Sequence record: OP172784 | Direction: 5' to 3' (one strand) | Length of the DNA stretch: 64,000 nucleotides | Source of the DNA: Escherichia phage ECO07P1 | Shown: positions 5,403 to 43,306 of the stretch, in pieces | Position numbering within the stretch: the stretch's first letter is position 1 | Layout of the letters: every line of letters starts with the position of its first letter | Program-made: the position numbers and the translations under genes | Notes under the pieces: generated by a model | What the model was told of the DNA's origin: nothing | The model's input: the letters and a program-made list of their open reading frames with translations, nothing else | Databases searched by the model: none

Positions 5403-8400
5403 TTATGCTAAACGAACGATATAGTTAAAAGCAATGTTTTTAACCGTGTTTTCTGTATTACCTGTACTATTTACAGTGATAGTATGACCATGCGAGCCAA
5501 TTGCTACCGTGTGGGTATGAGCACCGATACCTACAGTATGGGTATGAGCACCAATACCTACTGTGTGAGCATGGTTACCCGTAGCGCTAGTAGTTCCTGA
5601 CCAACTATGGGTGTGGGCACCGTCTGAAGAAGTTTTGGCCATATTCGACGCTGCAGTAGCACCGCTCACGGTTCCAGTGATTTTAGCGTTGCCGTTTGGA
5701 CCTGCACTATTGTATCCATCATAGAATATGCTAGTGGGTATGCCGCCTTGCATCTGAGGGCCTGAACGAGCGTGTTGGTGCGCACCAGCGGAACTAGTAT
5801 TACCACTCACTGTATGGCTATGGTTGCCGGTGGTATTACTGGTCTTAGTACCATAATCAAAGCTTGAAGTCGTTTTGCTACCGTAATCAAAACTTGATGT
5901 GGTTTTAGTACCTAAGTCAGTACTTGAAGCCGATGCACTATGGCTATGAGCCTTAACACCATCTTCTTCTGCGCTCAAAACATCACGACCACTTGGTTTA
6001 CCCTTGATAGTTTGCCCGCGCATATCAGGCAGAGAGCCGGAAGGATACACCGCAGCTAACTTAGGATACAAGCCAACATCAAATGTTTGACCTTCCATTA
6101 TGGCATAACCTTCAGGAGGTGTATCAGTAGGCCAAGGAATCGGAGCTCCAATAGGATAACTTGAAACAATATCAGTTTTAAGTGATTCAATCGTACTGTT
6201 TAAGTTAGCAAAATTACCAGAACCACCAGTAATATTACCATCAGTACCAAGAGTAGCAGCACCGGCAATAATTTTACCAGGTGTGCGGAAGTCACCGGTA
6301 CGACGGAATTCCCAACTTATATCGGTTCCGGTAGTACTAGTACCTTGGTGATAATGGACACGGAAGTCTCCTTGGGCAATTAAGGTACCAATAGAATAAG
6401 TACTATCACCCTTTACATACCGTTGTTTAACAATAGGAATGTATTCAGAAGTAGCAGTACGCTCTATATTCATATAAATTGGAGCTCTTACGTTTACATC
6501 GTTCTGAGATGCAAAGGAACCACAACCCGTTGGGCGAACTCCATCAGAAGCCTCAATATCTATATAAGCATTTTGTCCTAATTGCATTCTAAAGTTGGCA
6601 TTAATGCGAGAGTTACTATTTATAGTAGTTAAAGCATTATTTTGATCTACTATAAAAGAATCTCTTCCTAACCCAACCATGCCATCGTTTAATCCTATTC
6701 TCACAGGTCTCAAAGAGCTGTGAATGTCTCCGCTTTCGCCTTCATTTTGATTGGTTGGAATAATATAGAAGTTGGCTTCTGAACGACGGAAAATAGCGCC
6801 ATATTCGGAATTCCAAATTCTTAATGCATTAGCAGTTCCACCAATTTTTACTTGGCCGGTAATAGAAGAACCACCTTGGACAAACAAACCGTTAGACATA
6901 GTAACATTGCCACCGAAAGAACCTGTACCGGAGGCACTTATATTTCCAAGGCCTATGATATGACCTGTTTCGACAGTTCCGTTAAATTTAAAGTTAACCG
7001 GACCTACCGTTTGACCTGATGCAGGATTAGTACGTTGAGCGTAAAAATAATAACCTTGCCCATCAGCTACTTCAAAAACGGTTTCACGACTACGATCACC
7101 AGATGCGTTAAATGAATTACCCCACACTTTAACTGTAACAGGGCTTTTGTTTTGACCTGAGCGTGTGCCACTATTCCAGTATATGCTTCTAGTACCATCT
7201 ACAGCCGTCGGAGCATTAAATTGGAATCCCTGATTATCAGGTCCATCAATAATTATACCTTTATTAAGACGAAAAGCTAATGTAGAATCAATATTACCTG
7301 TTGCAGCGTTAAAGCTAATACTGTTAGCACCGGTTACTAGTTTAAGAATACCCGGGTTAACTTCCATGCCTTCTTGAGTATTAATATTAGTTTTGCCTTT
7401 ACCACGGAAATAGTGGTTCATTTTACCGCCTGAGTTATAGCCAATATGTGTCTGGCCGTCTCCACCAGTGTTTCCATCAGCTTGTGTTTGAACCGATAAA
7501 AAGGCAACGTTGGTTCCAGGCATAATCCATGTTGTGCCTTGATCTTCTGAGCGTCCAAATAATGCTTTACGTGTACTACGGAAACTGTCAGGAGTAATAG
7601 AAGCAACAGAATATCCACCGCCAACTAGATCAAATACACCGGTTTTTTTGTATGACAAGCCAGTTACAGTGTCACCGAGAACAAGATACTTATCGCCCAT
7701 TACACCGACGTTACCATAATCACTAGACGGGAAATCTGCAGTGAATGTACCTAATGCAAGGCTATTACGCCCAGCCATTCGGCCGTCGTTACGAATACCA
7801 TATTGTTTAGATGATGGAGTATTACCCGTCCACCAAGACATTTCATCTGCTTGGCCAGTCTGAGCTGTACAGATTTCATGCCACATGGTTCCGGCAGCTT
7901 TAGCGCGAACTTTACGAAGATAGTTTATACCGTTTGTTTCACCGGTTCCAGGATAAACATAGTTAACCAAAGATTGAGAATCATATTGCCCAAAGGCTTT
8001 GGCATCGTGAATAACAGTATCAACCGCAATGCGTTTAGTTACTAACGAATCTGATGCTAAAATACGGTTAGCTTGAAATTCACCGCCGTTTATAGAACGG
8101 AAATAGAATTCGCTATTAATAATGCTTCCGGTTCCTTGTCTAACTCTAAGACGTATTTCACCGTCAGTTGTAGTTTGAGGACGAGCATATATAACGCCTC
8201 GTTCAATGCCATCGGCATTTTCAAACCAAAGATGGGCATTGGAAGTATCATTTGAGGCTCTTGTATAAAATGAACCTTGTGTAGATCTGAAAACTTTTGC
8301 AGTTATGCCTTCAGTAGAACCAATAGGTCCATTTACGGTCATTCCACCAGTTTGTACATAATCGCCGTTTAATTTCAAAAGACCATTGATAGTCACATTT

Positions 8401-17581: not shown

Positions 17582-17606
17582 GGGGACCCTAGAGGTCCCC
17601 TTTTTA
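17582..17606 (+). terminator. intrinsic terminator after gene 32
   Basis: ggggacc-ctaga-ggtcccc followed by ttttt. Confidence 0.8.
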
Positions 17607-17975: not shown

Positions 17976-18338
17976 ATGTATATCGGTAAAAAGTATGAAC
18001 TTGTTCCAAGACTTATTGATACATTTATTAATTATCGTCCACGTTCTAATTCAGCAATAGTTAAAATTATTCAAGAAAATGGCGGATGGTTTGAAGTTAA
18101 AGAAGCTTTCTTTGCTGATGGATTTAGAGTAATAAAACACATTGAATGCGCAAATGGAAAGCATTTTTACTTCAACGTCTGTGAAGACGAATTTCATTGT
18201 TTTCGCGAGTATAAAGAACCGACTTTTGAAGATGAAGTCGAAGACAAGGTTTCTGGCGTAACAAAAATTCACTGCATTGTAGACGAAAACAATGTAGATG
18301 AAATCATTGAACTTTTGCGAAAAACTTTCAAAAAGTAG
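17976..18338 (+). CDS. hypothetical early protein
   Basis: Track ORF; ATG with SD gagga. Confidence 0.5.
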   Translation: MYIGKKYELVPRLIDTFINYRPRSNSAIVKIIQENGGWFEVKEAFFADGFRVIKHIECANGKHFYFNVCEDEFHCFREYKEPTFEDEVEDKVSGVTKIHCIVDENNVDEIIELLRKTFKK

Positions 18339-18372
18339 TTTACATCAGGGTAGTAGTGTGATACTATTACCC
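18338..18372 (+). promoter_or_regulatory. early promoter with -10 region inside a 9-bp inverted repeat
   Basis: GTTTAC 18338-18343; arms gggtagtag (18348-18356) / ctattaccc (18364-18372). Confidence 0.55.
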
Positions 18373-18392
18373 TAACAACTGAGGAGAATAAA

Positions 18393-20255: not shown

Positions 20256-20356
20256 TAATTGAGGCCTGAGTATAAGGTGACTTATACTTGTAATCTATCT
20301 AAACGGGGAACCTCTCTAGTAGACAATCCCGTGCTAAATTGTAGGACTACCCTTTA

Positions 20357-20388
20357 ATAAATACTTCTATATTTAAAGAGGTATTTAT
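20357..20388 (+). promoter_or_regulatory. stem-loop covering the I-TevI ribosome-binding site and start codon
   Basis: 8-bp stem ataaatac (20357-20364) / gtatttat (20381-20388); SD aaagagg in loop, ATG begins in 3' arm. Confidence 0.55.
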
Positions 20389-21124
20389 GAAAAGTGGAAT
20401 TTATCAGATTAAAAATACTTTAAACAATAAAGTATATGTAGGAAGTGCTAAAGATTTTGAAAAGAGATGGAAGAGGCATTTTAAAGACTTAGAAAAAGGA
20501 TGTCATTCTTCTATAAAACTTCAGAGGTCTTTTAACAAACATGGTAATGTGTTTGAATGTTCTATTTTGGAAGAAATTCCATATGAGAAAGATTTGATTA
20601 TTGAACGAGAAAATTTTTGGATTAAAGAGCTTAATTCTAAAATTAATGGATACAATATTGCTGATGCAACGTTTGGTGATACATGTTCTACGCATCCATT
20701 AAAAGAAGAAATTATTAAGAAACGTTCTGAAACTGTTAAAGCTAAGATGCTTAAACTTGGACCTGATGGTCGGAAAGCTCTTTACAGTAAACCCGGAAGT
20801 AAAAACGGGCGTTGGAATCCAGAAACCCATAAGTTTTGTAAGTGCGGTGTTCGCATACAAACTTCTGCTTATACTTGTAGTAAATGCAGAAATCGTTCAG
20901 GTGAAAATAATTCATTCTTTAATCATAAGCATTCGGACAAAACTAAATCTAAAATATCAGAAAAGATGAAAGGCAAAAAGCCTAGTAATATTAAAAAGAT
21001 TTCATGTGATGGGGCTATTTTTGAATGTGCAGTAGATGCAGCTAGACATTTTAAAATTTCGTCTGGATTAGTTACTTATCGTGTAAAATCTGATAAATGG
21101 AATTGGTTCTACATAAATGCCTAA
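20387..21124 (+). CDS. I-TevI: I-TevI GIY-YIG homing endonuclease
   Basis: 245-aa ORF inside td intron; N-terminal GIY..YVG motif, C-terminal zinc finger and DNA-binding region. Confidence 0.9.
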   Translation: MKSGIYQIKNTLNNKVYVGSAKDFEKRWKRHFKDLEKGCHSSIKLQRSFNKHGNVFECSILEEIPYEKDLIIERENFWIKELNSKINGYNIADATFGDTCSTHPLKEEIIKKRSETVKAKMLKLGPDGRKALYSKPGSKNGRWNPETHKFCKCGVRIQTSAYTCSKCRNRSGENNSFFNHKHSDKTKSKISEKMKGKKPSNIKKISCDGAIFECAVDAARHFKISSGLVTYRVKSDKWNWFYINA

Positions 21125-28344: not shown

Positions 28345-28398
28345 GTTTACAAGTCCCTCGTGTTGTGTTATAGTAGACTTACTGACATAACATGAGGA
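28345..28398 (+). promoter_or_regulatory. early promoter inside a long inverted repeat upstream of alc (cassette copy 1)
   Basis: GTTTAC 28345-28350, -10 tatagt 28369-28374; arms 28356-28370 / 28383-28397 with SD gagga in the 3' arm. Confidence 0.6.
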
Positions 28399-28402
28399 CT
28401 TT

Positions 28403-29776: not shown

Positions 29777-30980
<1,204 letters not shown>

Positions 30981-31044
30981 TTGCTTGTCACCATGAAACT
31001 TGGACTATTATTAATTGGCTCGAAGAAAATTATGTGAGGTAAAT

Positions 31045-31320
31045 ATGTTTCCGACTTATTCTAAAATCGTAGAAGTAGTGTTTAGTCAAATTATAGCTAA
31101 TAATATGTTTGAAAAGCTTGATAACGCAGCTGAGCTTCGAATTCATGCTCAAGTGACTCATGTATTGAACACTTTGCTTCCAGACCAGGTTGATTCTATC
31201 GCCATTACGCTGTATCCAGGTTCCGCGCATATCATTGTCGTATTCGGTCTTGATGCTGAGCTAGTCATCAAAGGCGATATTCGTTTTGAATCGCAGACAT
31301 CAGAATTCAAAGCAATTTAA
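31045..31320 (+). CDS. hypothetical protein
   Basis: Track ORF 31015 (TTG); first ATG at 31045 with SD gaggt. Confidence 0.4.
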   Translation: MFPTYSKIVEVVFSQIIANNMFEKLDNAAELRIHAQVTHVLNTLLPDQVDSIAITLYPGSAHIIVVFGLDAELVIKGDIRFESQTSEFKAI

Positions 31321-31322
31321 TA

Positions 31323-31361
31323 GTTTACTTTACGGTAGAGTTGTGATATTATAGCTCTACC
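31323..31361 (+). promoter_or_regulatory. early promoter with -10 inside a 7-bp inverted repeat
   Basis: GTTTAC 31323-31328; arms ggtagag (31334-31340) / ctctacc (31355-31361); -10 TGaTATTAT in loop. Confidence 0.55.
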
Positions 31362-31382
31362 AAAATAAATGAGGAAATTGAA

Positions 31383-31619
31383 ATGCTAAGTGAAAAACCA
31401 ATTACTGTTAAAGAATTTCAAGAAAAAGTTAAACTATTTGCTCAGGAATTGGTAAATAAGGTTTCTGAACGATTTCCTGAAACATCGGTTCGTGTTATTA
31501 CCGAAACTCCTCGTTCAGTATTAGTAATTGTGAATCCAGGTGATGGTGACCAAATAACACATCTCAAATTGGATTTTGATGGATTAGTTGAAGCACAAAG
31601 GGTGTATGGCGTACTATGA
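31383..31619 (+). CDS. hypothetical protein
   Basis: Track ORF; SD gagga; promoter upstream. Confidence 0.5.
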   Translation: MLSEKPITVKEFQEKVKLFAQELVNKVSERFPETSVRVITETPRSVLVIVNPGDGDQITHLKLDFDGLVEAQRVYGVL

Positions 31620-31954
31620 TGAATTTAACTGATATAATTGATAATTGTCTTGAAAATGATACTGGCGATCATAGAGCGCTTGATTCTGAAACAGCACAGT
31701 TCATTAGAATAACTTTAATGAACGATACTCTAGTGAATAGTATTCATCCTTCTGTGTATGATGCTATTATTGTGACGAAGTATCCAGTTGAGCTTCACAA
31801 AAAGATGGCTGGTGCAATTTTCATTGATAAGAAAAACCGCTTTAAAGATGGGCAGAATATAATTAGTTCTGTTATTAAAAGTATAACTAAACTTCGTCAT
31901 GAAATTTATCGTGTTGAAACTGCTAAATCTGCTTATCTGGTGATTATGAAATGA
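31616..31954 (+). CDS. hypothetical protein
   Basis: Track ORF; coupled to neighbours. Confidence 0.5.
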   Translation: MMNLTDIIDNCLENDTGDHRALDSETAQFIRITLMNDTLVNSIHPSVYDAIIVTKYPVELHKKMAGAIFIDKKNRFKDGQNIISSVIKSITKLRHEIYRVETAKSAYLVIMK

Positions 31955-32532
31955 AAGCGAGTACAGTACTTCAAATTGCATATTTAGTATCACAAGAATC
32001 CAAATGTTGCTCCTGGAAGGTAGGAGCAGTAATTGAAAAGAATGGACGTATTATTTCTACTGGGTATAATGGTTCGCCCGCAGGCGGTGTGAACTGTTGT
32101 GATTATGCTGCTGAGCAAGGTTGGTTGCTGAATAAGCCTAAACATACTATCATTCAAGGTCATAAGCCCGAATGTGTATCGTTTGGTTCAACTGATCGTT
32201 TTGTCTTAGCGAAAGAACACCGTAGTGCTCACTCTGAATGGTCGTCTAAAAATGAAATTCATGCTGAACTAAATGCAATTTTGTTTGCTGCACGAAATGG
32301 TTCTTCAATTGAAGGTGCTACTATGTATGTAACACTTTCTCCTTGCCCAGATTGTGCAAAAGCGATAGCTCAATCTGGAATTAAAAAGCTGGTTTATTGC
32401 GAAACATACGATAAGAATAAACCTGGCTGGGATGATATTCTGCGAAATGCAGGTATTGAAGTGTTCAATGTTCCTAAGAAAAACTTGAATAAGTTAAATT
32501 GGGAAAATATCAACGAATTCTGTGGTGAATAA
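31951..32532 (+). CDS. cd: dCMP deaminase
   Basis: 193-aa ORF with cytidine/deoxycytidylate deaminase zinc motifs (HAE...PCxxC). Confidence 0.9.
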   Translation: MKASTVLQIAYLVSQESKCCSWKVGAVIEKNGRIISTGYNGSPAGGVNCCDYAAEQGWLLNKPKHTIIQGHKPECVSFGSTDRFVLAKEHRSAHSEWSSKNEIHAELNAILFAARNGSSIEGATMYVTLSPCPDCAKAIAQSGIKKLVYCETYDKNKPGWDDILRNAGIEVFNVPKKNLNKLNWENINEFCGE

Positions 32533-32768
32533 TGAAATTTCGTTTGGTACAACTCACAGCAATTAGTTCTTATTCTAATGAGAATATTTCATTTGCTGTA
32601 GAGTATAAGAAATATTTTTTCTCTAAATGGAAACAGTATTATAAGTCAGAATGGGTTTGTATTGATAGGCCGTATAGTTGGAAATCTGATTTAGAAAAAT
32701 GCCAAAAATTGCTTTCCACTCTTAAAGAACGTGGAACAACCCATATTAAAACTGTAATAGGTAAATAA
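32532..32768 (+). CDS. hypothetical protein (31.2 position)
   Basis: Track ORF. Confidence 0.5.
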   Translation: MKFRLVQLTAISSYSNENISFAVEYKKYFFSKWKQYYKSEWVCIDRPYSWKSDLEKCQKLLSTLKERGTTHIKTVIGK

Positions 32769-33077
32769 ATGAAACTGACGACTGAACAAAAAGTAGCAAT
32801 TCGTGAAATTTTGAAAACTAAATTGTCCATGGGTATTTCAAACGTGGTTTTTGAAAAGTCTGATGGTACTATTCGTACTATGAAAGGCACTCGTGATGCT
32901 GACTTTATGCCAACTATGCAAACCGGTAAATTGACTGAATCTACTCGGAAAGAATCTATTGATATGATTCCAGTATTTGATGTTGAGCTTGGTGCATGGC
33001 GAGGTTTTTCTATTGACAAATTGATTTCCGTTAATGGTATGAAAGTTGAGCATTTGCTTCAATTTATTGGTAAATAA
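32769..33077 (+). CDS. hypothetical protein (31.1 position)
   Basis: Track ORF. Confidence 0.5.
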   Translation: MKLTTEQKVAIREILKTKLSMGISNVVFEKSDGTIRTMKGTRDADFMPTMQTGKLTESTRKESIDMIPVFDVELGAWRGFSIDKLISVNGMKVEHLLQFIGK

Positions 33078-33133
33078 ATGCTTTAAGAATTATTTGTTAT
33101 TATTAATTCATCTGTTAACAAAAAGGAAAAACG

Positions 33134-33469
33134 ATGTCTGAAGTACAACAGCTACCAATTCGTGCTGTCGGTGAATATGTTATTTTAGTTTCTGAACCTG
33201 CACAAGCCGGTGATGAAGAAGTTACAGAATCAGGACTTATTATCGGTAAACGTGTTCAAGGTGAAGTTCCTGAACTGTGTGTAATTCACTCTGTTGGTCC
33301 TGATGTTCCTGAAGGTTTCTGTGAAGTTGGTGATTTGACTTCTCTTCCAGTTGGTCAAATTCGAAACGTTCCGCATCCTTTTGTAGCTCTGGGTCTTAAG
33401 CAGCCAAAAGAAATTAAACAAAAATTCGTTACCTGTCACTATAAAGCTATTCCGTGTCTTTATAAGTGA
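33134..33469 (+). CDS. 31: gp31 co-chaperonin (GroES analogue)
   Basis: 111-aa ORF beginning [19 protein letters not shown], recognised as T4 gp31. Confidence 0.9.
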
Positions 33470-33477
33470 TATAAATA
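33470..33477 (+). promoter_or_regulatory. possible late promoter motif between gene 31 and rIII
   Basis: tataaata immediately after gene 31 stop, about 140 nt upstream of rIII. Confidence 0.3.
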
Positions 33478-33616
33478 ATAATATGAATTGGATGTCGGAA
33501 TAATAAGTTAACCGAACAATTCTATGTGGTAGTCTACAACTGAGAGATCTGTCGAAAGAAGATGAAATTCAGAAGAACGTGACTACCGAGTTTTAATCTC
33601 TAACGAGAATTTTTAA

Positions 33617-33865
33617 ATGATTAAACAATTACAACACGCTCTTGAACTGCAACGAAACGCATGGAATAATGGTCACGAAAACTATGGTGCATCTATTGAT
33701 GTTGAAGCCGAAGCTCTTGAAATCCTGCGTTATTTCAAACATCTGAATCCTGCTCAAACTGCATTAGCTGCTGAGCTTCAGGAAAAAGATGAACTTAAGT
33801 ATGCTAAGCCTCTGGCTTCTGCTGCACGAAAAGCAGTTCGTCACTTTGTGGTAACACTGAAGTAA
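33617..33865 (+). CDS. rIII: rIII lysis inhibition accessory protein
   Basis: 82-aa ORF downstream of gene 31 as in T4. Confidence 0.75.
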   Translation: MIKQLQHALELQRNAWNNGHENYGASIDVEAEALEILRYFKHLNPAQTALAAELQEKDELKYAKPLASAARKAVRHFVVTLK

Positions 33866-34016
33866 TTTATTGGAGAGTCACTGCCTTAGTGTGAAGTTAA
33901 AACGAGGAGCCGTCGAACTTTGTTTTACGGTGTACCTCTTGAATGATGACGGGTTTATGGTTATCCTGTCGTTAAATATCCAAAACCTATGTTCCCCTTG
34001 AGGGCTTGCGCAGGCA

Positions 34017-34235
34017 ATGCCAATAAGTCCTGCATTTTCATTTAAAAGAGAATTTATAATGGCAAAACAAGTTAAAGCAAAGAAAGCAGTTGAAAAGAAA
34101 GTTGGTGATTCTAAACGCGCTGGCTACAAGCGTGGGTCGAACTCTCGTATCAATCAAACTGTTGAGAAGATCATGCGTCGAGCACGTGCGGTTCTTCGAG
34201 ATGATGCTTCTCGTTTTGGTAAGCAGAAAGCATAA
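34017..34235 (+). CDS. hypothetical basic protein (alternative start ATG 34059)
   Basis: Track ORF; Lys/Arg-rich; terminator hairpin downstream. Confidence 0.4.
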   Translation: MPISPAFSFKREFIMAKQVKAKKAVEKKVGDSKRAGYKRGSNSRINQTVEKIMRRARAVLRDDASRFGKQKA

Positions 34236-34240
34236 GTTGA

Positions 34241-34266
34241 GGACTCCTTCGGGAGTCCTTTTTTAT
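34241..34266 (+). terminator. intrinsic terminator (UUCG hairpin plus T-run)
   Basis: ggactcc-ttcg-ggagtcc followed by tttttt. Confidence 0.8.
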
Positions 34267-34287
34267 TTTCCAAAGATTGCACAAAGT

Positions 34288-34318
34288 TGTTTACAGTATA
34301 GTTCCTTTGTGATAGTAT
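34288..34318 (+). promoter_or_regulatory. early promoter for ORF 34346
   Basis: GTTTAC 34288-34293, TG-extended -10 near 34311-34318; upstream A/T-rich region like the motA cassette. Confidence 0.55.
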
Positions 34319-34345
34319 TATCTTACACAAACAAAGGAGAATAAA

Positions 34346-34678
34346 ATGAAAACGATTAATCTGAACGCTACAGTTAAAACTAAATGCTTCAATGGTAAAT
34401 ATGATGAAACTATGTGGTTCTTAATGGCAGTTGAAGGTGATATTATTGAAGTAGAAACAACAGAAGGTATGGGAACAGATTTCACCTTTACAATTCAAGT
34501 TCATAATTTCTTTACTGGTTGGATTTATGAATTGAATACAGTAATCGTTGGAAAAATTGAACAAAATGAATTGGGTGAATGGTATTATGTTACAGCTCGT
34601 CAACGTGCCGAACGCTTAATTGAGAAGATGAAAAAAGTTGGTAAACTTGACATGCAGCACTGGAAAGTAGTAAAATAA
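34346..34678 (+). CDS. hypothetical early protein
   Basis: Track ORF; SD aaggaga; early promoter upstream. Confidence 0.5.
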   Translation: MKTINLNATVKTKCFNGKYDETMWFLMAVEGDIIEVETTEGMGTDFTFTIQVHNFFTGWIYELNTVIVGKIEQNELGEWYYVTARQRAERLIEKMKKVGKLDMQHWKVVK

Positions 34679-34680
34679 TT

Positions 34681-34720
34681 GTTTACTTTGGTACAGGATA
34701 TGATATTATATACCTGTACC
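34681..34720 (+). promoter_or_regulatory. early promoter with -10 inside an 8-bp perfect inverted repeat
   Basis: GTTTAC 34681-34686, 17-nt spacer, TGaTATTAT; arms ggtacagg (34690-34697) / cctgtacc (34713-34720). Confidence 0.6.
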
Positions 34721-34746
34721 GCAATTAAACATCTCGGAGAATAAAA

Positions 34747-35112
34747 ATGAATTACATCAACTTTGAACGTAAATATGTTTCTAACGGTATTGCAGGTTCT
34801 ATTGATACTATCTGCCTTTGGAAACATCAAAATGGATCAGTATGCGAAATTGAACAGTATATGACTCCTAACTACGTTTATATGCGATTTGAAAATGGCA
34901 TTACGGTTTCAATCACGAAAGAAGGTTCTTCTTTTAAAATCGCTTTGGATGATGATTTTCGTCAACGTGATTTAGGGACTCATCCTTGCTGGAATGGCGT
35001 TAATCGTAAGCTTCTGGTTAAAACTTGGATTCGTCATATTCTGAGTAATAGAGCTAAACCTGAGCATCTTGAAGCAATCTTTGATGTAGTTCTTAACGAA
35101 TTTGATATTTAA
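34747..35112 (+). CDS. hypothetical early protein
   Basis: Track ORF; SD ggaga; promoter-palindrome upstream. Confidence 0.5.
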   Translation: MNYINFERKYVSNGIAGSIDTICLWKHQNGSVCEIEQYMTPNYVYMRFENGITVSITKEGSSFKIALDDDFRQRDLGTHPCWNGVNRKLLVKTWIRHILSNRAKPEHLEAIFDVVLNEFDI

Positions 35113-35120
35113 AATAAAAT

Positions 35121-35138
35121 AAGGGGCTTCGGCCCCTT
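35121..35138 (+). other. UUCG-tetraloop hairpin (no following T-run)
   Basis: aagggg-c-ttcg-g-cccctt after ORF 34747..35112. Confidence 0.5.
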
Positions 35139-35153
35139 ACTGAGGAAAATACT

Positions 35154-35441
35154 ATGTTTATGACTACTTATTTTGATACTCGTAAAAACTTCTGCGAAGT
35201 AGTTTTCTCTAAGGCGCCTAAAGACCTTCCTGCTCATTTGCAGCCTACCAGTGAATCGATTAAAAACTATGTTAATGTAGTATGTCCTTTAGAGTTCCGT
35301 ACTGTAAATGGGCGTGATACTCTAGCTATCACTAAACTCAACCGTGAAATTGACATTGACCCTTCAATCGCGCGCGAAATTAACATTTCTGATATCGGCG
35401 GCGGTAATGTTAAATCGCATGGTTTTCAGATGAGGTTCTAA
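35154..35441 (+). CDS. hypothetical protein
   Basis: Track ORF; SD gagga. Confidence 0.5.
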   Translation: MFMTTYFDTRKNFCEVVFSKAPKDLPAHLQPTSESIKNYVNVVCPLEFRTVNGRDTLAITKLNREIDIDPSIAREINISDIGGGNVKSHGFQMRF

Positions 35442-35638
35442 TGAAATTCTTTTTAGGTCAAACTGTTGAATTAAAGGGAGTTGGTATACCTGGATTAATT
35501 TCTAAGGTTCTACCTCCATTTAAATGGAGTGGTATTCAAATAAAAGAGGCTTATATTGTTTCCTGGGTAGATGGAAATGAAGACCTTCGTATGGGTGATG
35601 AATTATCTCCTATCTACGGATTAAAGGAATTAATATGA
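35441..35638 (+). CDS. hypothetical protein
   Basis: Track ORF; overlapping stop/start. Confidence 0.45.
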   Translation: MKFFLGQTVELKGVGIPGLISKVLPPFKWSGIQIKEAYIVSWVDGNEDLRMGDELSPIYGLKELI

Positions 35639-35841
35639 ATATAATTAATAAGATTTTTGGAATTCAGTACATTAAGGTTACATATAAAGTAACGTATAAA
35701 GGTCCGTATACCGATGAACATGAAGAGCCACAAGTTCAGTCTATTATATTAGAAAAGGACCCTAACTGGCCAGTTGAATTTCGTCTTCCTTGCTATGGTC
35801 ATTGGGCTGATGTTGAAATTATAAGTATTGAAAATGTCTGA
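35635..35841 (+). CDS. hypothetical protein
   Basis: Track ORF. Confidence 0.45.
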   Translation: MNIINKIFGIQYIKVTYKVTYKGPYTDEHEEPQVQSIILEKDPNWPVEFRLPCYGHWADVEIISIENV

Positions 35842-36292
35842 GTTAGAGATAAGAAGCAATTTTAGATGGCCATCATGCGCATTAAGTAATTTCGCCCAAT
35901 GGCCTTTTGTTATGGACGGTATTCAATTTGGAGGTCTCGAAGGATTCCTCCAAGGATGTAAGGTGAAAAATGTTGAACAACAACGTCGCATATTTGGGTT
36001 ATCCGGGCTTGCCGCCCAACAAGCTGGACGAGCTTATGCTAGAGCTCAGGACCGTGGGACCCTCTTCTGGCTTGGAGTTCCGTTTTCAAGATACTCTCCA
36101 GCGTGGAAAGAATTATACACAAATGCATATTTTGAAGCAGCGATCCAAAACAAGGGATTTCGTGATGCATTACAAGCCTCGAAAGGAAAAGTTTTGAAGC
36201 ACAGCATGGCTAGTGGTCTAACAAAAGATGATACAATACTAACCGAAGCTGAATTTATTGATGTGTTAAACCTATTAAGAGACTCTCTATGA
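35834..36292 (+). CDS. NADAR / YbiA-like (DUF1768) domain protein (T4 30.3 position)
   Basis: Motifs SNFAQWPFVMDG...EGFLQGCK resemble the YbiA/NADAR fold; ATG 35834 overlaps upstream stop; track start 35828 is TTG. Confidence 0.55.
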   Translation: MSELEIRSNFRWPSCALSNFAQWPFVMDGIQFGGLEGFLQGCKVKNVEQQRRIFGLSGLAAQQAGRAYARAQDRGTLFWLGVPFSRYSPAWKELYTNAYFEAAIQNKGFRDALQASKGKVLKHSMASGLTKDDTILTEAEFIDVLNLLRDSL

Positions 36293-41188: not shown

Positions 41189-43246
41189 ATGGAACTTATT
41201 ACAGAATTATTTGACGGCGCTTCGGCGCCGGTTGTTAACTTAAATCCTAAGCATAAAATACCTCAAATTTTCGCTATTCAAGCCGGTGAAGAAAGTGTGC
41301 TTCCTGGATTTAGATTTTGTACATACACCTCTGGCGGTGATACAAATAAAAACGTTAAGCCAGGCGATAAAATGATGCATATCGTAATGATAGGTGTTAA
41401 TGAGAAATTATCATTAGTTAAACTTAAAAACTTGGGTGGAAATCCAATTGGTGTTATTAATGCGGTTTTTGATACTGCTCTTCAAACAATGAAACAGTAT
41501 AAAATTGACGCATGCCTATTCCGCGTACTAAAAAGTAAAACAAATGGCGCAGCTCGTCAAATGCAAGTTATTGCTGACCGTTTAGTACGTACTAAAGGAG
41601 CAGGTCGATATGTTCTTTTAAAGGAAATCTGGGATTATGATAAAAAGTATGCATATATTATGGTTTACCGTAAAAATGCCAATTTAGAAGACATTCCAGG
41701 TGTACCTCCTATTTCAACTGAGTTATTCACAAAAGTTGAATCAAAGGTTGGTGATGTTTATGTAGATGTTAAAACAGGTAATGCTGTTCCTAAAGCTGTT
41801 GCTGTTGCTGCTTCTATTGCTTTAGAAAATGATAAGCGCACGGATCAAGCTGTTATTCAGAAAACTAAAATTAGTCGTCGATTAGCAGCGCAAGCTCAAT
41901 ATTCTACTGTAGATGCTTCGCTTCAGGGTGATAGCTTCGCTGCCAAGAAATATCAAGAGTTTGAATCTAAAGTTCCGGTATATAAAGCAGAAGGACCAAT
42001 GAACTCTGGCGTTATTCAGATTGGTTCAAACTTCAGCAAAGGAGCTATCGGTGGTATGAGAAGTGCTTCTCGTTTTAAATCTAGCGATTATGAACTAGAA
42101 AACTTCCGAAATCATATTGCATTGGCTCATGCGCGTTTACGTGATCCATCTATCAAGTTACAGAGCGATATAACATATCAAGGTTCTCAGGAATATTTAA
42201 AGAATAAAGAATTTTTTGATTATAAAACTGATAAAATTTTAAGCGATCTTGCTGACATTAATATTTCTAATAGCTTTGATGTTATTAAGAAAATCGTCAA
42301 TGATTTAGTTAAAGGTTCTAAAGCCACGCCAGACGAAAAGATAGCTATTGTTCAATTTGTCATGAATGGCATTTATAAATTGATTAATGAGTCTGCTTCT
42401 CAAGCGTATGAATATGCAAGTACCGAAGTACCCCCAAAAGGATTAACTCAGGCTGAGTCTGATGTAATTGAAGATTATTGTGCAGATTCATATGTTGAAA
42501 TGAACTCGTTCCTCTTGGGTAAACCAGATTCTACCCGTGAAGAATACATGGAACGAGCTATTAAACACATCGAGACGCTGGATTCTGCATTCGCCAAAGG
42601 ATCAGTTCTTCCTCCAGGAACTACGCTTTATCGTGGACAAGAAGTTACTTTTAAAACTTTACGCCATAATATTGAAAATAAAATGTTCTATTTCAAGAAC
42701 TTCGTATCAACATCGCTTAAACCAAATATCTTCGGTGAGTATGGTAAAAACTATATGGCCCTAGATGATTCTGGTGCAGTATTTTCTGGTGAAGGAGAAG
42801 GTTCAGTTGATGCTGAAGATTTAATGCATATGGGCAGTCACTCTGCTTACGCGAATGAAGATGCTGAAACTAGCGTGGGTATGGTAATTAAAGGGGCTGA
42901 GCGAATCAAAGTTATCGTTCCAGGTCATTTATCAGGATTTCCATCAGAAGCTGAAGTTATTCTACCGCGCGGAATTTTACTGAAGATTAATAAAGTAAGT
43001 ACGTACTTTATGAAAGAAACTGCTTATAACAAGTATCTAATAGAAGGTACAATCGTTCCTCCTTCTGAACAATTAGAGGAATCGGTATATGATGGCGACC
43101 ATCTAATGGAAACTGGCGAAGTTCGTCCAATGGCTGGATTTAATCAATTCCTTGTAGAAGAATCAAAAGAAGAGGAAAACGAAGTTTCTCAAATCTTAGC
43201 TTCTTTGGTTAACATTAACGGAATGTCTAAAAAGTTCAAAATGTAG
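41189..43246 (+). CDS. Alt-like ADP-ribosyltransferase paralog, copy 2
   Basis: 685 aa; same N-terminal MELITELFD, same signature (LYRGQ, FVSTSL, EAEVILPRG), conserved C-terminal ESVYDGDHLMETGEV; central ~200 aa divergent. Confidence 0.75.
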   Translation: MELITELFDGASAPVVNLNPKHKIPQIFAIQAGEESVLPGFRFCTYTSGGDTNKNVKPGDKMMHIVMIGVNEKLSLVKLKNLGGNPIGVINAVFDTALQTMKQYKIDACLFRVLKSKTNGAARQMQVIADRLVRTKGAGRYVLLKEIWDYDKKYAYIMVYRKNANLEDIPGVPPISTELFTKVESKVGDVYVDVKTGNAVPKAVAVAASIALENDKRTDQAVIQKTKISRRLAAQAQYSTVDASLQGDSFAAKKYQEFESKVPVYKAEGPMNSGVIQIGSNFSKGAIGGMRSASRFKSSDYELENFRNHIALAHARLRDPSIKLQSDITYQGSQEYLKNKEFFDYKTDKILSDLADINISNSFDVIKKIVNDLVKGSKATPDEKIAIVQFVMNGIYKLINESASQAYEYASTEVPPKGLTQAESDVIEDYCADSYVEMNSFLLGKPDSTREEYMERAIKHIETLDSAFAKGSVLPPGTTLYRGQEVTFKTLRHNIENKMFYFKNFVSTSLKPNIFGEYGKNYMALDDSGAVFSGEGEGSVDAEDLMHMGSHSAYANEDAETSVGMVIKGAERIKVIVPGHLSGFPSEAEVILPRGILLKINKVSTYFMKETAYNKYLIEGTIVPPSEQLEESVYDGDHLMETGEVRPMAGFNQFLVEESKEEENEVSQILASLVNINGMSKKFKM

Positions 43247-43300
43247 TTTACAAGTTCCTCATGTTGTGTTATAGTAGTCTTACTGACATAACATGAGGAA
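43246..43300 (+). promoter_or_regulatory. early promoter inside a long inverted repeat (cassette copy 2, near-identical to 28345..28398)
   Basis: GTTTAC 43246-43251, -10 tatagt; perfect 11-bp arms ttcctcatgtt (43255-43265) / aacatgaggaa (43290-43300); SD gagga in 3' arm. Confidence 0.6.
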
Positions 43301-43306
43301 CACAAA

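Follow-up and report, generated by a model that had tools for sequence, protein, structure and literature searches.

The window, meaning here the whole stretch of 64,000 nucleotides that was analysed, is assigned to a Tequatrovirus on sequence identity. Its positions 30000-36000 match the reverse complement of Escherichia phage ECO07P3 (OP172786.1, Tequatrovirus) with 100% identity, and the rest of the window also aligns with this phage except for a stretch spanning the record ends. Window positions 1 to about 1216 cross the ends of the linear OP172786.1 record (circular permutation); an ungapped comparison of the window with ECO07P3 gave 967 mismatches in 64 kb, which we ascribe as a whole, rather than position by position, to this record-end stretch. 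Because the match is to the reverse complement, the + strand of the window is the direction of early transcription. The pattern GTTTAC-N16-19-TAnnnT matched 11 times in the window, always on the + strand, against 3.4 matches expected. Three early promoters of the form GTTTAC-N17/18-TGnTAnnAT are considered here, S1 (18338), S2 (31323) and S3 (34681), and the sequence upstream of each is A-rich. Comparison with the annotated T4T record places S1 between the frd.2 and frd.1 homologues, S2 at the cd.3-to-cd.2 junction and S3 at the 30.8-to-30.7 junction. All three are intergenic, the stop codon upstream being -1 to +2 nt away from the -35, while SD and ATG come within the next 20-40 nt; each has an upstream promoter with no intervening terminator. 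Their elements are the following.

18338..18343, + strand: S1 -35 GTTTAC, promoter of the frd.1 homologue; the stop codon TAG of the upstream ORF (18336-18338) overlaps it
18347..18358, + strand: S1 5' arm AGGGTAGTAGTG, within the promoter spacer; 12 bp, two G.U pairs, -15.2 kcal/mol
18359-18361, + strand: S1 loop TGA, containing the extended -10 TG
18362..18373, + strand: S1 3' arm TACTATTACCCT, made up of the -10 TACTAT (18362-18367) and 6 nt
31323..31328, + strand: S2 -35 GTTTAC at the cd.3-to-cd.2 junction; upstream stop codon TAA at 31318-31320
31334..31345, + strand: S2 5' arm GGTAGAGTTGTG, with Watson-Crick core 31334-31340 and the extended -10 TG at 31344-31345
31350..31361, + strand: S2 3' arm TATAGCTCTACC, with Watson-Crick core 31355-31361; -10 TATTAT at 31347-31352
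34681..34686, + strand: S3 -35 GTTTAC at the 30.8-to-30.7 junction; upstream stop codon TAA at 34676-34678
34689..34697, + strand: S3 5' arm TGGTACAGG, its core invariant in 7/8 genomes from 4 genera
34698-34712, + strand: S3 loop (15 nt), containing TG (34701-34702) and the -10 TATTAT (34704-34709)
34713..34721, + strand: S3 3' arm CCTGTACCG, as in the RNA fold

A preliminary description had placed an inverted repeat around the -10 of each promoter, and a script-based check found all three promoter/repeat combinations where it had put them. The S2 repeat ggtagag (31334-31340)/ctctacc (31355-31361) is perfect and flanks the TATTAT, and the S3 repeat ggtacagg (34690-34697)/cctgtacc (34713-34720) is also perfect, with the -10 in the 15-nt loop. 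At S1 the repeat gggtagtag (18348-18356)/ctattaccc (18364-18372) is present but includes one G.T and so is imperfect; the final four bases of the -10 belong to its 3' arm as well, so that the -10 is not fully in the loop. The accompanying statement that the -10 occupies the loop is a DNA-centred one: in RNA the hexamer stays in the loop at S3 but is partly paired at S2 and wholly paired at S1.

When folded as RNA, S1 forms 12 bp around a 3-nt loop (-15.2 kcal/mol, z = -2.7) and S2 forms 12 bp (31334-31345 with 31350-31361), three of them G.U, around a 4-nt loop (-16.3 kcal/mol, z = -3.9), while the full fold of S3 reaches -19.4 kcal/mol (z = -5.2). These RNA stems are longer than the DNA repeats, as G.U pairs also tie the 3' half of the -10 to the TG-extended region. 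In the S3 fold the GUUUA of the -35 also pairs with UAAAC (34726-34730), and the promoter from the -35 to about +20 lies wholly within a single long hairpin, about 21 bp at -19.4 kcal/mol (window 34681-34730). The SD is outside the stem at all three sites (S1 GAGGAG, 18381-18386; S2 GAGGA, 31371-31375; S3 GGAG, 34736-34739), and in the predicted folds of S1-S3 both SD and start codon are unpaired, the 3' arm making no SD pairing of the e/soc/49 type. It had been argued from the position of the SD that the function would be other than SD sequestration, and for S1-S3 this is correct. Rfam 15, searched at the gathering threshold, gave 0 matches across the window.

Elements of this kind have been described before. 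Arbiol et al. 2010 (PMC2839356) reported PeSLs (promoter-early stem-loops), cassettes that combine an early promoter with a stem-loop, in RB49/phi1, with the stem-loops most commonly between the -35 and -10 or overlapping the -10, and favoured roles in termination and recombination. We could reproduce the RB49 geometry directly, for example in ...atgcggttatcaTATAATgaccgcat.... S1-S3 resemble the RB49/phi1 elements in the order strong early promoter of the host sigma-70 type with AT-rich upstream sequence, stem-loop, then SD and start of a small gene; their stable stem-loop likewise lies within or overlaps the promoter, and their position is intergenic, the RB49/phi1 PeSLs being intergenic and next to variable ORFs. 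The two sets differ in that RB49 has TTGACA/TATAAT promoters and G/C-run stems (GGGG...CCCC), whereas GTTTAC-TGnTAnnAT is found here with AT-richer, G.U-bearing stems that differ per site; moreover, reporter and mini-circle data exist for RB49/phi1, whereas S1-S3 are known from sequence alone. Comeau et al. 2014 (PMC4122927) extended PeSLs to PST/T4 and nt-1/KVP40. The PST/T4 elements come from the same phage group as S1-S3 and share with them TTTACW...TAYWAT promoters, weak AT-rich variable stem-loops and possibly an association with indels, but their stem-loops were described just upstream of the promoter whereas S1-S3 embed the -10. T-even promoter/stem-loop elements with weak AT-rich stems are also attributed to internal-protein loci in the account that PMC2839356 gives of Repoila 1994. 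Judged by its layout, the architecture of S1-S3 is of the published PeSL type. The -10-embedded T4 geometry is not stated in PMC4122927, and the two PeSL papers (PMC2839356, PMC4122927) are silent on a chimeric-control test, a strand-specific G.U signature, cross-genus compensatory changes and a junction-length rule. Our literature search found no usable T4 5'- or 3'-end maps, and two Virology Journal reviews of T4 do not mention hairpins around the -10.

The whole ECO07P3 genome was rebuilt and its early promoters listed for genome-wide tests. The longest perfect complement between a spacer and the 50 nt downstream reached at least 7 bp in 14 of 36 promoters; among cross-paired controls, in which spacers were matched to the downstream sequences of other promoters, the share was 4.8%. 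An energy test that allowed G.U pairs used spacer/downstream chimeras in which spacer and -10 stayed those of the promoter itself. Hairpins with an energy of -12 kcal/mol or lower were found within 16 nt of the -10 in 8 of 32 promoters (chimeras, 0.6%) and within 40 nt in 16 of 32 (chimeras, 1.7%), with a permutation p < 5e-5. The comparison of flanking inverted repeats with controls over the genome, suggested in the preliminary description, thus gave an excess well above chance by both measures (14/36 and 16/32). The same excess recurs in seven further genomes from four genera (T4T, three Mosigviruses, two Dhakaviruses and a Gaprivervirus). The pattern is clearly non-random and under selection. 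One could regard the hairpins as a functionless by-product of the promoter consensus, arising by chance or from composition, since the inner stem comes partly free with the consensus (TG pairs with TAnTAT through G.U) and single stems are short, 7-9 bp. The chimeras, however, retain the consensus-derived part and yet fold far worse.

The selected pairing carries a strand signature. At the position adjoining the Watson-Crick seed, 12 of 19 cases have G.U, where composition predicts about 14.5%, and 2 of 19 have A.C, which on the sense strand equals G.U on the opposite strand. The G.U excess lies partly at consensus-fixed bases (TG, TAnTAT), but positions free of the promoter consensus show it too, with 22 G.U and 9 A.C where equal numbers are expected. 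Sense hairpins have a mean energy of -11.6 kcal/mol and antisense hairpins -7.0 kcal/mol, the sense fold being the stabler one at 26 promoters and the antisense fold at 6 (Wilcoxon 2e-5); at S1, S2 and S3 alike the sense fold is the stabler. In DNA a G.T apposition is a mismatch, so it is in the sense RNA that pairing is selected, and what surrounds these promoters is a sense-RNA hairpin. This bears on the roles proposed in the preliminary description: its two RNA-level options, processing or stability of read-through RNA and attenuation of upstream transcription, stand as a class on the G.U excess and the greater stability of the sense strand, while the DNA-level protein site does not. A DNA-level element could take the form of a cruciform, a palindromic binding site (for early-promoter shut-off, for instance) or a recombination target driving PeSL shuffling, and a DNA-binding protein was among the speculations of Arbiol et al. 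(PMC2839356). With G.U enriched, A.C not, and sense hairpins stabler than antisense, neither a DNA cruciform nor a palindromic site for a protein is likely. At S1-S3 no DNA palindrome or operator was recognised: the stems depend on G.T appositions that are mismatched in DNA, strand asymmetry is marked, and the stem sequences are unrelated between sites. We rejected a DNA cruciform or operator on G.T content and strand asymmetry.

Roughly 750 INPHARED records contain the S2 junction. Orthologous junctions were compared in 10 genomes taken from a phage collection; IMG/VR searches by protein and by pattern yielded just 5-6 loci that are almost identical, plus a single Mosigvirus variant of use. 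As read from the alignments, orthologous promoters in four genera retain a hairpin through compensatory or wobble changes or through unrelated stems, which argues both against a chance origin and, by pointing to selection for pairing itself, against a DNA element. The S2 stem is ggtagagtt/agctctacc in T4, ECO07P3 and G8 and ggtaggact/agtcctacc in JS10, with two double compensatory changes and one U.G-to-C-G change; in the Mosigviruses it varies via wobble pairs, and fPS-65 tolerates one A.C mismatch. In the S2 alignment, a small sample of 7 sequences whose numbers are modest, 93.7% of cells are paired against 25-49% with a slid partner. At three pairs both partners have changed, in every case in the one JS10 sequence, and the observed score was attained by 6 of 500 shuffles. 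The covariation anticipated in the preliminary description is thus seen at S2, where compensatory and wobble changes keep the stem, on a small sample and with modest figures. At the S1 position four unrelated stem families occur among five lineages: agggtagtag/ctattaccct; (ta)aggctat/atagcct(ta), which G8 and JS10 have in common; gatagggct/agtcctatc in three Mosigviruses, with steps from G.U to G-C to U.G; and atggggc/gtcccat. S1 (the frd.1 promoter) was treated qualitatively and its covariation count dropped because the lineages differ in stem register. At S3, 7 of 8 genomes, drawn from four genera, share identical 8-bp arms, and loop and flanks vary. In VR20 and IME341 the S2 hairpin is replaced by a different, spacer-internal hairpin, and AV109 has lost the S3 hairpin, its promoter being a chimera without the 5' arm. 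Given the mismatch in fPS-65, the replacement in VR20 and IME341 and the loss in AV109, single hairpins are dispensable.

As a raw count, an indel or cassette swap is present at every one of the three junctions in the set of 10 genomes. At S2 an extra ORF of about 175 aa lies between the promoter/SD cassette and cd.2 in fPS-65 (20284-20811), JS10, IME341, VR20, RB32-like phages and many Tequatroviruses, and its breakpoint is exactly at the ATG (window cd.2 start, 31383); the cassette is therefore reused for a different first gene. The 30.7 promoter of AV109 (upstream of 19742) resembles ATK47 promoter 23807 in its 5' half and P30.7 (ATK47 24251) in its 3' half, and ATK47 promoter 23807 is the next early promoter upstream of P30.7; the chimera looks as if two early promoters had recombined and so produced a deletion. 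Near S1, an unannotated hydrophobic ORF of 22 codons (MFAPYIMAAVMLVCLYLLIKAC) with a GGAG SD lies at about 7479-7547 in T4T, between the S1-type early promoter and frd.1. It is also found in fPS-65, downstream of promoter 7934, and is missing from the window; there frd.1 is driven directly by the corresponding promoter. Such variability appears to fit the PeSL shuffling idea, and the indels and swaps at all three junctions, together with the apparent AV109 promoter-promoter recombinant, are what a recombination target would predict; the breakpoints, though, fall at the ATG/SD or in the promoter core, outside the stems. DNA-level roles are disfavoured, and taking both sides together we consider them very unlikely.

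As the 5' arm is found upstream of the -10, the promoter's own transcript lacks it, and only read-through RNA can fold. With canonical spacing the own transcript would start about 7 nt past the -10, at a point within the 3' arm or further on; for S2 this puts the start site at about 31359, within the 3' arm. Geometry thus restricts the hairpin to read-through RNA, that is, presumably to transcripts coming from upstream early or middle promoters. T4 genes e, soc, 49 and I-TevI have a promoter inside an SD-sequestering hairpin, in their case a late or middle promoter with the 3' arm over the SD. S1-S3 share with that design the promoter in a hairpin, a proximal transcript without the 5' arm (given their probable start sites) and the folding of read-through RNA; they differ in that their SD is free whereas there it is covered by the 3' arm.

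Whether an early promoter carries an embedded hairpin is tied to the length of its junction. With the upstream stop codon 16 nt or less from the -35, a hairpin of -8 kcal/mol or lower was embedded in 18 of 20 promoters, against 2 of 11 with longer junctions (Fisher p = 1.3e-4). Most long junctions have instead, at 55-75 nt upstream of the -10, a textbook terminator including a T-run, and in compact junctions the embedded hairpin substitutes for it. The window holds two such terminators for contrast.

17582..17600, + strand: canonical terminator, GC stem and T-run, in a long junction before the hairpin-less early promoter 17631
34239..34260, + strand: canonical terminator upstream of promoter 34289

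This association, too, is at odds with a chance by-product, a reading that was already largely refuted by the control, covariation and junction-length tests and that we regard as scarcely credible. Intrinsic terminators and REP-type 3' protectors are the familiar intercistronic stabiliser hairpins. Like them, S1-S3 place a stable stem-loop directly past the stop codon, where the genome otherwise puts terminators; unlike intrinsic terminators, they lack a U-tract and the hairpin overlaps a functional promoter.

The substitution would also be expected if the hairpin were an attenuator or terminator that stops or pauses the upstream polymerase, leaving each gene mainly on its own promoter, as the PeSL authors proposed. 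Stable RNA stems of -12 to -19 kcal/mol fit such a role, and the stem-loop of PeSL211/210 from RB49/phi1 cut downstream lacZ expression in vivo about as much as rrnB T1 (PMC2839356), although a lacZ assay does not separate termination from RNA decay or translation effects. Against it, class A stems (those with the 3' arm on or just past the -10, as at S1-S3) have no U-run and their 3' flanks are A-rich, not T-rich (aacaactg, aaaataaa and gcaattaa at the three sites), which counts against a classical terminator without being decisive. A terminator scan of the window did not call S1-S3, whereas it called 17582 and 34239, and the same genome has textbook terminators where space allows. We rejected an intrinsic (Rho-independent) terminator identity for S1-S3 for want of a U-run; attenuation in the wider sense, the chief competitor of the reading we prefer, seems to us a real but minor possibility.

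Over the genome the hairpins fall into three geometries, each with the 5' arm in the spacer. Class A comprises S1-S3 and about six more promoters at other places in the genome. In class B the 3' arm is the SD; the window has this arrangement at 28345, 34289 and 43246, which are the two long cassettes of the preliminary description and one more.

28356..28397, + strand: class B cassette of alc promoter 28345; 28356-28370 pairs with 28383-28397 including the SD, 15 bp, -19.9 kcal/mol
34302..34339, + strand: class B cassette of 30.8 promoter 34289; TTCCTTTGT pairs with ACAAAGGAG, the SD, in a 9-bp stem
43254..43301, + strand: class B cassette of alt.-3 promoter 43246; 18-bp stem with the 3' arm over the SD, -25.8 kcal/mol

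The spacer-SD pairing regions extend over 28345-28400, 34289-34345 and 43246-43305 in the window, and at least five further promoters elsewhere in the genome show such pairing. The three cassettes are early-promoter counterparts of the SD-sequestering design of T4 e/soc/49, and on the modelled folds read-through RNA should be translationally silent and the promoter's own RNA open. Class C consists of spacer-internal hairpins that pair with the TG-extended -10. In one example, TACCACA-agga-TGTGGTA, the hairpin is perfect and the TG-extended -10 itself serves as the 3' arm; the class was seen at ECO07P3 reverse-complement positions 114170, 158498 and 162778, beyond the window, and in VR20 and IME341 at the S2 position.

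Sequestration of the SD by a spacer 5' arm at 28345, 34289, 43246 and the at least five other promoters raises the question of whether class A is a milder relative of the SD-sequestering cassettes, tuning translation by altering ribosome loading in read-through RNA compared with the unstructured own leader. Class A stems stop just 3-14 nt short of the SD. A structure that ends a few nucleotides before an SD nevertheless usually has a small effect, SD and start codon are unpaired in the folds predicted for S1-S3, and tuning would leave the terminators in long junctions unexplained. Translation tuning is thus possible but weak as an explanation, and we think it unlikely.

To the reading that S1-S3 are T4-type early promoters set inside an intercistronic RNA hairpin of the PeSL type, which acts in read-through RNA only as a 3'-boundary element for the upstream message, we give roughly even credence. 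In a polycistronic read-through RNA the hairpin would be the first structure after the upstream stop codon and would take the role that a separate terminator hairpin has in roomier junctions. It could define or protect the 3' boundary of the upstream message by blocking 3' exonucleases once RNase E or RegB has cut immediately downstream, in the A/U-rich leader or the SD, so that its part would be in 3'-end protection or processing. Some pausing or attenuation may occur as well, and the free SD would keep the downstream gene translatable. That the -10 sits in the loop or inner stem is probably due to shortage of space: a junction of 55-65 nt has its -35, TG, -10 and SD fixed, which would leave just the spacer and the region of +1 to evolve complementarity.

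A wider and rather unlikely extension is a genome-wide code in which every early gene at a compact junction would have two mRNA isoforms with different fates, its own unfolded and a read-through folded one. SD-sequestering hairpins would then confine translation to the immediate-early burst, while -10-embracing hairpins would cut the delayed-early/middle polycistron into separately stabilised cistrons. Such a code would bear on two long-standing questions in T4, the distinction between immediate-early and delayed-early expression and the way early gene expression is shut off. T4-type phages have dozens of strong early promoters in junctions of about 60 nt. If the hairpins of the preferred boundary-element reading set the boundaries or stability of read-through messages, this would explain the regulatory autonomy of compact modules, which is a precondition for modular gene shuffling in T4-type genomes. 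They would also offer a sequence-level handle on immediate-early versus delayed-early expression, and the engineering of T4-like therapeutic phages would be affected, as edits in the spacer or at +1 could break an RNA element. The PeSL concept gains from this two simple points that can be tested, the G.U strand signature and the rule on junction length.

Two of the early promoters in the window, 1347 and 17631, are hairpin-less. Their flanks are near-identical (aaaaattttttcacaaaa...GTTTAC...TACTATacaactatc) and each is preceded by a strong bidirectional-type terminator; the two look like copies of a duplicated terminator-promoter module.
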